This document shows, piece by piece, positions 31,037 through 37,270 of a stretch of 64,000 bases of DNA. Positions within the stretch are counted from its first letter, which is position 1; every line of letters starts with the position of its first letter. Made by a program: the position numbers and the translations under genes. The DNA comes from Escherichia coli. Lineage in GTDB: Bacteria; Pseudomonadota; Gammaproteobacteria; Enterobacterales; Enterobacteriaceae. The stretch is taken from NCBI RefSeq assembly GCF_003019035.1, contig NZ_CP027447.1. One strand, 5' to 3'. Under the pieces are notes generated by a model. The model did no database searches. It saw only the letters and a list, made by a program, of their open reading frames with translations, and was not told the DNA's origin.

Positions 31037-31591
31037 ATGCTTATTGGCTATGTACGTGTGTCAACAAATGACCAGAACACAGATCTACAACGTAATGCGC
31101 TGAACTGTGCAGGATGCGAGCTGATTTTTGAAGACAAGATAAGCGGTACAAAGTCCGAAAGGCCGGGACTGAAAAAACTGCTCAGGACATTATCGGCAGG
31201 TGACACTCTGGTTGTCTGGAAGCTGGATCGGCTAGGGCGTAGTATGCGGCATCTGGTCATTCTGGTTGAGGAGTTGCGCGAACGTGGCGTTAATTTTCGC
31301 AGCCTGACGGATGCTATTGATACCAGCACACCGATGGGGCGTTTTTTCTTTCATGTGATGGGTGCCCTGGCTGAAATGGAACGAGAACTGATTGTTGAAC
31401 GAACAAAAGCTGGACTGGAAGCTGCTCGCGCACAGGGACGAATTGGTGGACGTCGTCCCAAACTTACACCAGAACAATGGGCGCAGGCCGGGCGATTAAT
31501 TGCATCAGGCGTTCCTCGCCAGAAGGTGGCGATCATCTATGATGTTGGTATATCGACACTGTATAAGAAGTTTCCGGTCGGAGATAAATGA
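31037..31591 (+). CDS. pin: Site-specific DNA invertase Pin (serine recombinase, Hin/Gin/Pin family)
   Basis: ~184 aa from MLIGYVRVSTNDQ; near-identical in pattern to e14 Pin (catalytic Ser in YVRVST; C-terminal HTH). Confidence 0.9.
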   Translation: MLIGYVRVSTNDQNTDLQRNALNCAGCELIFEDKISGTKSERPGLKKLLRTLSAGDTLVVWKLDRLGRSMRHLVILVEELRERGVNFRSLTDAIDTSTPMGRFFFHVMGALAEMERELIVERTKAGLEAARAQGRIGGRRPKLTPEQWAQAGRLIASGVPRQKVAIIYDVGISTLYKKFPVGDK

Positions 31592-31629
31592 AACCGTAGC
31601 ACGTCGTATGCAAGATCGTGCTGCGGTTT
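31591..31629. repeat. Hairpin repeat copy A (AAACCGTAGCACG-n13-CGTGCTGCGGTTT)
   Basis: 13-bp inverted repeat with one mismatch, directly after the pin stop; core shared with copies at 32609..32720 and 37170..37270. Confidence 0.6.
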
Positions 31630-31648
31630 ATGCTTATCACTTAAAGAC

Positions 31649-32422
31649 TCAAAAATTAGGTGAGTAACGGACCGGGGACATAGCTCCTTTTTTTCTTAAT
31701 TCATCTGGTATTTTTTTTCCAAGATAAAGATTTGCTATTTCAGGTGGGGCTTCTCGGCCTTCAAAACCATAGCGAGAACTTTGTGTTGCCTCAAAGTCAG
31801 GATCCTCGTCCCAGTATTTCATCGTAGGGAAATTTTCACGTGTTGATTTGAGCCATTTATCAGCAATGAAAACCCCCCGAACGATTCCCCTTACAGTAGC
31901 AAGAATAACTTCTGCTTGGCTGGCGCGAGAGACATTAATGCGCCAGCTAAATCGAACCGCATCATAAAGCTCTGAATCCTTTGCACTTCTGTTAACGGAA
32001 ATCATTAATGCTTTATGATGAAATGTTATGGTTTCGGGTTGATATGTTGCTATCAACTCTTTGACATGCGCGGCGCCGAATTCATTGCTGCCAGCACCAT
32101 TCATGATATTCGTTAACCCAGGGTAGGCATCAATAAGTGCAGCTTCAACTTCGTACGCCGTCTTTTCATCAGTCATTCCGTGTCGATGGATGACATGGAT
32201 AACTTCAAGTCCTGCTAACCTTATTTCTCTAATTTGCTTTAGCTTGTTGCTCAGTAACTCGTCATCATCAGTCGCTGCCACTTCACCGCGCATATGGGCA
32301 AATACGCGGTTACCTTTGCCTTTCCCTACATAGAAGGTGCTTCCGTCCCTCGGATCAATCAATCGGTATACATACCAGCCAAGGTGTTCAATTACTCCAG
32401 AAGGAAACTCAGTAATATCCAT
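31649..32422 (-). CDS. GIY-YIG-like nuclease domain protein with uncharacterised C-terminal domain
   Basis: ~258 aa from the ATG at 32422 (ORF track starts at a TTG at 32473); N-terminal pattern WYVYRL-x9[14 protein letters not shown] then conserved Glu/Asn region; no HNH/Cys cluster, so not McrA. Confidence 0.55.
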
Positions 32423-32608
32423 TTTGCAATATCTATGAATTATTTGTGAGACGTATATTAATGAACATTGCAAGGGCTCACAACCAGTAGTGTTGAGAAA
32501 ACTATCGGGTAAATGAGGCTAATCCTTTGAATTTACATAGTAAAAAAGATACTTTTCCTCATAGTGTGAGCTAATTTTATGTTTCGTTTGATGATCGGAC
32601 CGGTCTCA

Positions 32609-32720
32609 AAAACCGCAGGCACGTTGTATGCAAGAACGTGCTGTGGCTGGCTGGTGAACTTCCAATAGTGCGAATATTGAATGATTTCTATCTGTTATAG
32701 ATTTTACCGTATTTCGGCAT
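32609..32720. repeat. Repeat copy B (~110 bp) of a dispersed element
   Basis: Shares the core CCGCAGGCACGTTGTATGCAAGAACGTGCTG and the downstream GGCTGGTGAACTTCCAATAGTGCGAATATTGAATGATTTC with copy C (~70% identity by eye). Confidence 0.55.
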
Positions 32721-32981
32721 GAATGAAACTGAATATCCTCCCACCGATTCTCCATGACTTTACGCCACTGTCTCTAGGGCTGCTATGTGCCAGAGGCGGA
32801 CGTTGTTAAAATAGAAAATATCCCAACCTTGTATGAGTCGTGCAATAATTTCGAACTTTATACAAAGCTTTGGTTGTAAAGGTGTATAACCACAAGTGAC
32901 ATTAATCACATTTGTAAAGGCAAAATGCAACAAACTGAATTAGTTAATTGCGTAAATTTGAAGTTATGTTAAGGTGGTGAT

Positions 32982-33114
32982 GGTTTATGGGCAGATTTTG
33001 GGTCGCGTTTCGCGATCAGTGAAAAAAATGTCCGATAGGATTGCCTTTCAGGATCTCATGTTCCTCGCATTTCTTAAGGTTCTTGTCAAGTTTGCGTAAG
33101 AGTGCCCATAAACC
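32982..33114 (+). ncRNA. Candidate retron msr/msd non-coding RNA flanked by inverted repeats a1/a2
   Basis: 12-bp perfect inverted repeats GGTTTATGGGCA (32982..32993) and TGCCCATAAACC (33103..33114) bracket 109 nt; a G follows a1; small hairpin TCGCG-TTT-CGCGA at 33003..33015; ends 20 bp before the RT start. Confidence 0.4.
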
Positions 33115-33133
33115 CTTTTAGAGGCGATCTAAA

Positions 33134-34969: not shown

Positions 34970-35298
34970 TATTATGATGCGCACTGATTATTCCTTATTC
35001 AGCTAAAATTTCTACTGTAGTCCCAACTTCCGTTCCTCGCTCATAACAGACATTCACTACAGTTATGGTAGAAGGTATGCATGCTGGGTGGGGAAAGTAT
35101 GAAGGAAAAGAAGACTGCTGCGCCGTTTGTTGTCACATTTATCTTCATTGGCTATGCAAGTCGTAATACAAGGTGGGACAAAACTGAGACACATAAGGCC
35201 TCGCAATGACTTGCAAGGCTTTACATGTTTTGATGTGGTGGGACGTGTGAGCGCAGTGTTGATGGGGTAATGCTTTGAATTAGAAGCGGATTCTTATA

Positions 35299-35343
35299 AT
35301 TCGTAATGCGAAGGTCGTAGGTTCGACTCCTATTATCGGCACC
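35299..35343 (+). other. Partial tRNA-Thr 3' end (thrW-like pseudo-tRNA), prophage attR core
   Basis: ATTCGTAATGCGAAGGTCGTAGGTTCGACTCCTATTATCGGCACCA matches the anticodon-stem-to-CCA portion of E. coli tRNA-Thr(CGU) as recalled; no matching 5' acceptor strand upstream. Confidence 0.75.
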
Positions 35344-35941
35344 ATTTAAATCAATAAGTTATCTCACATTTAAGTAAACTACGTTCTCCTCTTGTGCCTT
35401 TGATTTTGCTCGCGTGCGCGGTGAAATGCCTGACTGAAAGGTGAGCATATCGACGAACCATTTCGAGAGTTTCCCATCTGCTCATTTTTAAGTGCAAGCA
35501 GGAAAACACCGGACTAAACCAATCAGCTGTTCGAAAATGGCAAGCGGATTAATATGCCATGGCGGGGCAGCTTTGAGCCGCACGCATGGGGTGTGGCAAG
35601 CCTGATGGATTTTGCTGTGCCTGTGGTGGCGTGTTTGCTGGTTTGGCTGTTGGTTAAACGCGAAAGTCATAATGCCAGGGGAATACCGCAGGGTGTTCAG
35701 GTTTTGCATAAAAAAGCCCACCATTAAGGTGGGCAAAAGGAATGATTTATATTCTCTGAGAGAAACATTACATTTCTCCTTGTCACTTCTAACATAAAAA
35801 TATGGAGAAATAATGGAGCTTATATTAATTGGCGATTAGGTAACCATGTGGTTATACAAAACAATACAGTTCTTTACATTTGCCTTGTTTTATGAATACT
35901 CCTGAAGAGGTGTACAACATAATTAAACAAACAGGGTAAAT

Positions 35942-36556
35942 ATGAATATATTTGAACAAACTCCACCGAACCGCAGACGTTATGGTCTTGCTGCATTCAT
36001 TGGGCTGATTGCTGGCGTTGTTTCCGCATTTGTGAAGTGGGGGGCTGAAGTTCCATTGCCGCCACGTAGCCCGGTGGATATGTTTAATGCAGCGTGTGGT
36101 CCGGAATCATTAATCAGGGCTGCTGGGCAAATTGATTGCTCCCGTAATTTTCTCAATCCTCCGTATATTTTTCTTCGAGACTGGCTGGGGCTGACAGATC
36201 CCAATGCGGCTGTTTATACCTTTGCCGGGCATGTCTTTAACTGGGTTGGTGTTACGCACATTATCTTTTCGATAGTGTTTGCTGTCGGTTATTGTGTGGT
36301 CGCTGAAGTATTTCCAAAAATTAAACTCTGGCAGGGCTTACTGGCAGGTGCTTTAGCCCAACTTTTTGTTCATATGATTTCATTCCCTCTCATGGGACTG
36401 ACGCCACCTCTGTTTGATCTCCCGTGGTATGAGAATGTTTCTGAAATTTTTGGACATTTAGTCTGGTTCTGGTCCATTGAAATTATTCGCAGAGATTTAC
36501 GAAACAGAATTACTCATGAGCCAGACCCTGAGATCCCTTTAGGCTCAAACAGATAA
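35942..36556 (+). CDS. yagU: Inner membrane protein YagU (DUF1440)
   Basis: 204 aa, multi-helix membrane protein; recognised as the E. coli YagU sequence. Confidence 0.85.
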
Positions 36557-36805
36557 TGCATTGAATGATAAAAATGGCGCAAATACAGCGCCATTTTTAT
36601 AGGTTAAAAACATTGTTTTTAACTTTCTGATGGCAGATAGCCAGTGAGTACATCGCGCTACTTCAGGATGCTGTAGATCCGGAGAACACTATAGAGGAAG
36701 AGGCATTGTTGCTGGCAGATGGAAGAAGTTTCGGGTTTTGTTATCCCTGAAAAACGAAGCCCCGCGATTATAGCTGGCGGGGCAGTGCAATTAATTATTG
36801 CATAT

Positions 36806-37135
36806 TTATAACGGTGTCAGCCCGTATTTAGCTCTTGCACGATTGCAAGCCTCATTGACGACTCCGTTCTCACCAGACATGGCGAATTCTCTGCACGTGG
36901 AAGATCGATTTTTATATATCGTGCAGCAGGCATTTTTGCCCGGTGTTCCTGCAAGGGCAATACATCGGGGGTTTTTCTGATTGGTACCGCTCATGCATCG
37001 GTGAAAAGGGGATATTTGTTCAGTGAGCCTGGCGGGAATGGTACCGCCAGCATCGTCGGCTTCGGCCCAGTAAAAAGAGACGCGGAAAAATGCACAACAG
37101 GCACCACACGTCATGCATGGATTCAGATTGCTCAT
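36806..37135 (-). CDS. ykgJ: Cys-rich ferredoxin-like protein YkgJ
   Basis: 109 aa with CxxCxxCC and further Cys clusters; conserved neighbour of yagU and the ecp operon. Confidence 0.8.
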
Positions 37136-37169
37136 AATTCACCAGTACAGCTATAAATCGTAAAGAGAA

Positions 37170-37270
37170 CTGCGGTACGTCGTATGCAGGGACGTATCGC
37201 GGTTGGCTGGTGTACTTTCGATAGTGTGAGTATTGAATGATTTCCAGCCGTTACCGATTTTACGTCCTAA
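37170..37270. repeat. Repeat copy C (~100 bp) of the dispersed element, in the chromosome
   Basis: Aligns with copy B across the hairpin core and the ...TATTGAATGATTTC... tail; lies 35-135 bp upstream of the ykgJ start. Confidence 0.55.

Follow-up and report, generated by a model that had tools for sequence, protein, structure and literature searches.

A prophage-end repeat with two hairpins, found beside defence cargo and ykgJ in Escherichia coli

What is the ~100-bp repeat that occurs both in a prophage and beside the chromosomal gene ykgJ of Escherichia coli, and what might it do in such places? The question is posed by a stretch of 64,000 nucleotides (contig NZ_CP027447.1, assembly GCF_003019035.1; hereafter the window), in which a preliminary description had noticed three related copies, A, B and C, with a common hairpin core. 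We found that the repeat family is not new, being the same as the published "attB-in-PP_2", and that the element lies where the late tail-fibre block gives way to the attachment (att) and cargo region of lambda-like and e14-like E. coli prophages. In the reading that we favour, with moderate confidence, A, B and C would be one non-coding prophage module of ~100 bp that works as a two-way terminator or insulator and also as a patch of homology for the exchange of cargo.

Structure and family of the repeat

All three copies were confirmed, and all lie on the + strand of the window. A 19-nt degenerate pattern for the loop, allowing up to two mismatches, found exactly three sites in the window, which are A, B and C, against 0.02 expected, and none of 100 shuffles reached three. 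B and C are 79% identical across 90 nt without a gap. The identity of A to B and C is 68-70% over 44 nt, and 86% when only the 37-nt hairpin is taken. The copies are as follows.

31591..31629, + strand: copy A, hairpin 1 only (stem 31594-31626), between the convergent genes pin (+) and PD-T4-3 (-).
32610..32707, + strand: copy B, full unit (hairpin 1, 32613-32646; hairpin 2 region, 32647-32699; GATTTTAC box, 32700-32707).
37166..37263, + strand: copy C, full unit (hairpin 1, 37170-37202; hairpin 2, 37203-37255; GATTTTAC, 37256-37263).

Copy B had first been placed at 32609..32720; the copy itself stands, but that right end is ~13 nt too far. The 3' arm of its hairpin 2 is degenerate. Copy A starts 3 nt past the pin stop codon (31589-31591); its 5' flank is rich in A and its 3' flank rich in U (TTTATGCTTATC). 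Copy C occupies the ykgJ/ecpE spacer, 30 nt upstream of the ykgJ start codon (37135) and 183 nt beyond the ecpE stop.

The anatomy of the unit was drawn from 194 copies (95 distinct sequences, 143 loci), 67 distinct full copies being aligned. These full copies have three parts: hairpin 1, hairpin 2 directly after it, and a sharp end at the conserved GATTTTAC. Hairpin 1 has a stem of 10-13 bp between an A-rich and a T-rich flank; its loop, with GTATGCAAGAA at the centre, is unusually long (9-13 nt) and conserved. Hairpin 2 has an outer stem GGCTGG/CCAGCC and an inner stem TTCGATA/TATTGAA. In the structure defined by ourselves, 91% of cells pair, compared with 27-56% in controls with the partners slid, and 44 cells are changed on both sides, compared with 20.8 +/- 3.0 in shuffles; pairs 14-42, 10-46 and 53-88 covary clearly.

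When folded as RNA, the hairpin core of the preliminary description proved stable at about -19 kcal/mol on both strands (-19.2 and -18.6), with no strand preference. Hairpin 2, by contrast, folds at -17.2 kcal/mol on the late-gene (+) strand and -11.3 on the other, the + strand being better in 55 of 57 sequences. This difference of ~6 kcal/mol is due to three nearly fixed G-U pairs; the variable positions of hairpin 2 have no strand bias (41 G-U vs 33 A-C). A coding role across the element was rejected, single-base indels between variants breaking every frame. The NCBI pipeline (PGAP) nevertheless calls 'capsid protein' pseudogene fragments over it in several genomes (e.g. locus L019, 3128-3214), and some phage records carry hypothetical proteins across it; both are probably spurious.

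The element was found in 5408 of 5426 complete E. coli genomes when 201 nt around copy B were used as the query, at a median of 3 and a maximum of 10 places per genome, nearly all chromosomal. The exact copy-B variant with its flanks is present in 137 genomes. A further 197 records of a phage collection contain the element, including HK106, mEp460, phiP27 and many Shiga toxin (Stx) phages. Lambda has a copy at 24162-24256, between ea47 and ea31, and HK97 has one at 20943-21040, between tfa and sib. In a search with one genome per species, the exact two-block pattern occurred in Escherichia only, plus a few tiny contigs that are probably contaminants. K-12 carries three copies, full ones in the ykgJ/ecpE spacer and at the end of Qin and a hairpin-only one at the end of Rac, and none in e14. 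Neither gathering-threshold nor permissive Rfam scans gave a family for the element, which is thus absent from Rfam as well as unannotated even in lambda.

Such numbers leave a practically negligible probability that the similarity is due to chance, to a generic E. coli repeat (REP/BIME, ERIC or BoxC) or to a miniature transposon. The small size of the unit fits these ideas and nothing else does: three sites stand against 0.02 expected, thousands of homologous copies lie always at prophage ends, no Rfam family reaches threshold, and there are ~3 copies per genome with neither terminal repeats nor target duplications. REP/BIME, ERIC and BoxC elements occur in tens to hundreds of copies per genome among operons. 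The element was rejected as one of them because its copies, a median of 3 in each genome, are confined to prophage ends and ykgJ/ecpE, and its sequence probably does not match their consensus sequences. A miniature inverted-repeat transposable element was likewise rejected, the inverted repeat being internal (hairpin 1) and no flanking duplication appearing among the 95 distinct copies. The small mobile element suggested in the preliminary description therefore finds no support, since terminal repeats and target duplications of its own are absent and the copies are tied to one prophage position.

The closest Rfam model is CssrB (RF02799), a chromosomal small RNA (sRNA) of Shigella. Hairpin 1 aligns below threshold to its 3' end (27.3 bits vs a gathering score of 76) and, in + orientation, corresponds to the final ~50 nt of the model. 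The 5' 127 nt of the model are lacking at the window copies. Given this and the sub-threshold score, the window copies are not CssrB. The CssrB RNA itself is ~180 nt long by northern blots in Shigella, with a 3' end placed by terminator prediction at hairpin 1, in the orientation opposite to that of the K-12 ends described below.

The family has nonetheless been published. Nakamura, Ogura, Gotoh and Hayashi (2021, PLoS Pathog, PMC8112680) named a 96-bp sequence of lambdoid prophages "attB-in-PP_2"; it is ~81% identical to the ykgJ/ecpE intergenic region, with similarity reaching 309 bp in some phages. They proposed that phages took this sequence from the chromosome and that lambda-like phages integrate into it. 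Copy C is the ykgJ/ecpE copy itself, and B matches the Stx phage records of that study at 82.7%. We found both the ~80% identity to the ykgJ/ecpE spacer and the prophage location near the cargo end, A and B lying after pin at the end of the tail-gene block and before defence cargo. The GenBank record of HK633 labels the element "attP; similar to non-coding region between ykgJ and yagV", and our literature search found no further paper mentioning it. As the element is a known annotated repeat, the earlier statement that it matches no known family was wrong in effect, true though it is of REP, ERIC and BoxC; the preliminary description had itself named such a repeat as what would refute it, and on that ground its novelty is refuted. 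The importance of the repeat as found is correspondingly low, because both it and its homology to ykgJ/ecpE were already published.

Position in prophages and transcript ends

Hairpin 1 starts 0-24 nt past the stop codon of a + strand pin, Tfa or tail-fibre open reading frame (ORF). In Qin and Rac the element ends ~190 bp short of the prophage/host junction, on the prophage side; in HK97, where it abuts the annotated sib, 188 bp separate it from the att core. In the window the upstream gene is the following.

31001..31591, + strand: pin, a DNA invertase (Resolvase + HTH_7), last gene of the prophage tail-fibre block.

On the 3' side the neighbours are diverse, comprising integrases (of two Arm-domain families), the host gene prfC, a kinase, a phosphatase, IrrE-like and HEPN proteins, and a retron. 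This position and these diverse neighbours indicate that the element is a boundary marker and is not bound to one integrase. The lambda sib/tI region and the boundaries of 'morons' likewise lie between the late region and att/int, and morons, like the cargo genes next to the element, are accompanied by a hairpin of their own. Unlike sib, to which it has no sequence similarity, the element is common to phages with different integrases. Separately, a short hairpin (GGGG...CTCC) followed by seven T's lies on the + strand at 31672-31697, inside the opposite-strand 3' end of the PD-T4-3 ORF, and may be a back-up terminator for pin.

RNA 3' ends at the element have been measured in K-12, a strain other than that of the window, and on one strand only. 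In the Term-seq tables of Adams et al. (2021, PMC7815308), "orphan" 3' ends stand at 304212/304213 (-), with ~88,000-99,000 reads on average and a Rho score of 1.44 ('No', not Rho-dependent), and further ends at 1632571/1632574 (+), with ~2,000-3,300 reads. These positions are the ykgJ copy and the Qin copy, respectively, each on the strand opposite the late genes, and both ends map 4-5 nt past the reverse complement of hairpin 1, within the U-tract. The two full K-12 copies thus both have RNA 3' ends immediately past hairpin 1 on the anti-late strand. The ykgJ end lies directly after hairpin 1 and 30 nt upstream of the ykgJ ATG; by homology, its equivalent at copy C would be a minus-strand RNA 3' end at ~37165. 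The anti-late-strand tails that follow hairpin 1 in the window are UUUUUG at B, UUCUCUUU at C and UUUCAUUU at A. In K-12, both 3' ends are preceded at 92-95 nt by a TAAAAT box, which is GATTTTAC read in reverse complement, and a start there would give a leftward RNA of ~86-89 nt. Two promoter candidates, TTGAAT-17-GATTTT (+) and TAAAAT (-), were set aside as both fell below our consensus scan.

In the module that we favour, hairpin 1 would be a two-way intrinsic terminator, or a hairpin that forms RNA 3' ends, and would insulate the late genes from converging transcription. We infer that it would do so on the late strand too, and at all three copies in the strain of the window. The tail (hairpin 2 with GATTTTAC) would form a structured end of the late transcript, or else belong to the leftward transcript running from TAAAAT to hairpin 1. 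Hairpin 1 resembles the bidirectional intrinsic terminators that lie between convergent genes, whose GC-rich hairpin is framed by an A-tract and a T-tract, and, as with these, RNA 3' ends fall a few nt past the stem at the K-12 copies. The element differs from them in its long, conserved loop (9-13 nt), in its second conserved part of 60 nt and in its borderline terminator score.

That score, 2.78 at 304213, is just below the cut-off of 3.0 used by Adams et al. (PMC7815308) and is the first of several points that weigh against our reading. A simple consensus terminator scan reported none of the three copies, its rules not allowing for so long a loop. The K-12 lists give no 3' end on the late strand, the late genes being silent in that strain. 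Since hairpin 2 is more stable on the late strand but the 3' ends were measured on the opposite one, a single simple account fails for the tail. RNAalifold, run on the 67-sequence alignment, gave hairpin 1 and not hairpin 2 as we had defined it, which makes hairpin 2 the less secure. The search pattern itself accounts in part for the strong loop conservation among the sampled phages, the region at -35 upstream of TAAAAT is poorly conserved, and the recombination by homology that the module would support is something we infer.

The same 3' ends could instead belong to an sRNA gene or a 5' leader, transcribed leftward on the anti-late strand and acting in trans or attenuating ykgJ, PD-T4-3 or ea47, whichever gene lies downstream. 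We hold this alternative to be possible, though tentative. Its parts would be TAAAAT as the -10 box, an RNA of ~86-89 nt with a conserved open internal loop, and hairpin 1 with its U-tract as terminator. In line with it, orphan 3' ends occur at both full K-12 copies, strong at ykgJ and much weaker at Qin; TAAAAT precedes both at 92-95 nt; C, B and the full lambda copy each lie 5' of a minus-strand gene; and the ykgJ end appears in a table that requires an upstream transcription start before the preceding stop codon (PMC7815308). Against it, no -35 region is conserved, the opposite strand forms the better hairpin 2, and DirectRNA-seq coverage around 304213 is low. The RIL-seq-based tables examined for K-12 and enteropathogenic E. 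coli (EPEC) and the Hfq tables examined contain no entry for the ykgJ/ecpE spacer. Many copies also have no downstream minus-strand gene. The regulatory leader 5' of minus-strand genes that the preliminary description had suggested therefore survives in part, and for C alone, with its K-12 3' end just ahead of ykgJ; it fails as a general rule, many phage copies following directly after + strand pin, tfa or stf with no adjoining minus-strand gene.

A second alternative places the function on the + strand, where the element would be a structured 3' untranslated region (UTR) of the late operon, hairpins 1 and 2 and AUUUUAC ending or stabilising the transcript or allowing sib-like processing. This reading expects late-strand 3' ends after hairpin 1 or GAUUUUAC, and we consider it somewhat doubtful. 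It would account for the start of the element 0-24 nt past the last late-gene stop codon, for the greater stability of hairpin 2 on the + strand (~6 kcal/mol, with its three nearly fixed G-U pairs), for the end of the CssrB RNA at hairpin 1 in + orientation and for the contact with annotated sib in HK97. However, beyond those three fixed pairs there is no strand bias (41 G-U vs 33 A-C), the U-tract has only 4 nt and the stem is long and interrupted, RNAalifold did not recover hairpin 2, and no experimental + strand 3' end has been seen for a full copy.

Cassettes, integration and the origin of copy C

Copies A and B flank a GIY-YIG gene, as the preliminary description had reported; the gene is identified as follows.

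31649..32473, - strand: GIY-YIG gene, the single-gene defence system PD-T4-3 (E 2.7e-140; Pfam LEM-3-like GIY-YIG domain).

We compared related genomes that have the pin and yagU sides in common and differ in between. In ECONIH1, pin is followed directly by one intact full element. In strain 20 and in the window, the GIY-YIG gene (~1 kb) is inserted, with hairpin 1 on both sides as A and B. In ECE313, PD-T4-3 is again flanked by hairpin 1 copies and is accompanied by a methylase/restriction cassette, whose left breakpoint falls inside the hairpin loop (GTATGC followed by the break) and whose right end has a tfa-type flank and a full element. Lambda shares this layout, which there consists of tfa, a hairpin-only copy (22573-22608), ea47 on the minus strand and the full element. 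Judged by these sequence comparisons, PD-T4-3 forms the cargo of a ~1-kb cassette with hairpin 1 of A as one boundary and that of B as the other, and this cassette comes after hairpin 1 behind at least four different upstream genes. The idea of a cassette boundary or recombination site, which the preliminary description had drawn from A and B, thus gains support, because the related genomes show insertions bounded by hairpin 1: intact in ECONIH1, duplicated in strain 20 and broken in the loop in ECE313. Neither the hairpin-only variant nor the cassette duplication is described in PMC8112680.

In the module that we favour, the element would act here as a shared patch of homology plus a fragile hairpin, where cargo enters or is exchanged. 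The role of a homology patch is suggested by the presence of the module in almost every such prophage, and it would explain both the duplication of the hairpin around PD-T4-3 and the reported occurrence of element-flanked prophages inside other prophages. A combined alternative, on which we can be no more than tentative, is that the module is a leftward RNA gene of ~86-89 nt and that hairpin 1 is at the same time a preferred landing point for defence cassettes. The cassettes concerned would be PD-T4-3, restriction-modification, lambda ea47 and ykgJ, with an adjoining variable slot that takes up retrons and others.

GIY-YIG nucleases include free-standing homing enzymes. The duplication at A and B could accordingly be ascribed to homing of the nuclease gene itself, the enzyme cutting cassette-free elements near hairpin 1 and repair copying the gene in. 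Presence/absence polymorphism at exactly one point of the element and the PD-T4-3 cassette after hairpin 1 behind at least four different upstream genes speak for homing. We nevertheless regard it as very unlikely: the protein matches the PD-T4-3 defence protein and the LEM-3-like GIY-YIG family, not the Seg/Tev enzymes, the target of homing is normally not duplicated, and nuclease-free cargo (ea47, ykgJ) takes the same position.

Hairpin-forming repeats that bound gene cassettes are also known as the attC sites of integrons. By inspection only, the element differs from these in that no GTTRRRY / RYYYAAC core sites were seen and no IntI is annotated in the related loci, and in that its cargo lies in either orientation with signals of its own. 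As a further observation, at least 16 viral loci (e.g. locus L133, positions 12185 and 13234) have a hairpin-only copy with a CssrB-type loop (CTTAAGCAAGAA) and, ~1049 bp later, a hairpin with a truncated tail. Both copies have the same 5' flank (CATTGGGATTATG), like a duplicated tfa end.

Nakamura et al. (PMC8112680) and the HK633 GenBank note take the element for a dedicated attachment site, at which a tyrosine integrase would join the phage copy with a prophage copy or the ykgJ/ecpE copy. Prophages flanked by the 96-bp sequence within other prophages have been reported (PMC8112680), the HK633 record bears the label attP, hairpin 1, with inverted arms on either side of a conserved GTATGCA, is shaped like a core site, and one cassette breakpoint falls in that GTATGCA loop. 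The published claim is based on sequence comparison only, however, and in the phages of that study two other att-like sequences lie between the integrase and the 96 bp (PMC8112680). One of them is an ompW-like sequence of 121 bp, which, intact and next to int, looks like an unused attP. At least three integrase types adjoin the element and have cores of their own, namely the lambda-type of HK97, IntS at argW, and one with a Rac-type excisionase (xisR). In E2348/69 the IntS prophage is joined to argW and the element is internal, between the tail genes and intS, whilst tandem Qin-like prophages have their junction ~195 bp from the element. The order ykgJ-element-ecpE is uninterrupted in 4951 of 5426 genomes, and no prophage splitting ykgJ and ecpE was present among the matches listed, in a search that was not exhaustive. 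In the window, A and B enclose 1 kb without an integrase, B and C enclose the retron, yagU and ykgJ and so are not an attL/attR pair with an integrase, and no phage is integrated at any of the copies. An attachment site is thus an unlikely explanation, and a dedicated role of this kind is unproven and finds no support here.

Two apparent examples of attachment were rejected. The label 'attP' in HK633 (locus L004, 3017-3097) lies ~1.7 kb from a 16-nt match, at about 4820 beyond torI, to the tRNA gene argW, which is the known target of IntS. Given this match and the layout of E2348/69, the label on the element is probably wrong. In PhiR42_1, the element at both ends represents the homologous ends of two tandem prophages, and the junction is ~195 bp away. 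A single crossover between two shared 96-bp copies would give the same picture as att integration. If confirmed, insertions of prophages into prophages would be explained simply by shared homology, with no dedicated integrase.

The surroundings of copy C bear on the direction of transfer. The features concerned are these.

36627..36740, + strand: tfa remnant of 115 nt in the yagU-ykgJ spacer (Rfam IS009 / EcsR2 region, 36562-36763).
36806..37135, - strand: ykgJ, in the cargo position next to copy C.

The tfa remnant is 77% identical to lambda orf-194, tfaR and tfaQ. Rfam IS009 matches in Rac, Qin and lambda lie inside these tfa genes (L022, 24755-24953; L023, 5345-5543; L005, 2155-2353), which indicates that the chromosomal 'sRNA' region holds a remnant of tfa. 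Near full-length homologues of ykgJ, with 80-83% nucleotide identity, stand beside the element in phage contigs (L046, 9278-9533; L056, 4812-5105), so ykgJ may be former phage cargo. The chromosomal order of tfa remnant, ykgJ on the minus strand and element is the prophage order of tfa, minus-strand cargo and element. We therefore read copy C as the probable fossil right end of an ancient prophage, fixed in the chromosome, and not as the source of the phage copies. The element, which lambda and HK97 themselves carry, appears to be phage-derived; if this is confirmed, the published view of a transfer from chromosome to phage would be reversed.

The variable slot beyond copy B

Between copy B and yagU the window contains the following features.

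32708..32821, + strand: flank conserved with B in related genomes, with a mini-ORF at 32719-32757.
32821..35025, + strand: variable cargo slot, here with a type I-C retron and in other strains with other defence-type genes.
33134-34969, + strand: Ec67-like reverse transcriptase (RT)-Toprim gene of the type I-C retron (PADLOC, E 4.8e-222).

In other strains the slot holds restriction-modification genes, an FRG-domain protein, a HEPN-like protein or hypothetical genes. Its far side carries an integrase remnant (35351-35509) next to yagU. The window lacks the yagP-paoABCD genes of K-12 and strain EC7, and its exact arrangement has no match among the complete genomes in the collection. If our reading is confirmed, the element would serve as a sequence landmark for a variable slot of defence genes at the end of the tail-fibre operon, occupied here by PD-T4-3 and the type I-C retron.

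Two stretches of 12 nt, 32982-32993 and 33103-33114, form a perfect inverted repeat directly ahead of the RT gene and are probably the a1/a2 repeats that bound the msr-msd RNA of the retron. Copy B was considered as this non-coding RNA and rejected, since the a1/a2 repeats lie 275 nt beyond B and the element is present at many loci without an RT.

The mini-ORF at 32719-32757 has 12 codons (MNETEYPPTDSP). It begins 10-13 nt past the element and recurs at that distance in lambda (~24268-24306) and at ~30 other copies, with the pattern M-[RKN]-x-F/L..PPPTD.. and often 12 codons, the position of the stop being variable (TGA/TGG). It may be coding, or may merely be conserved DNA.

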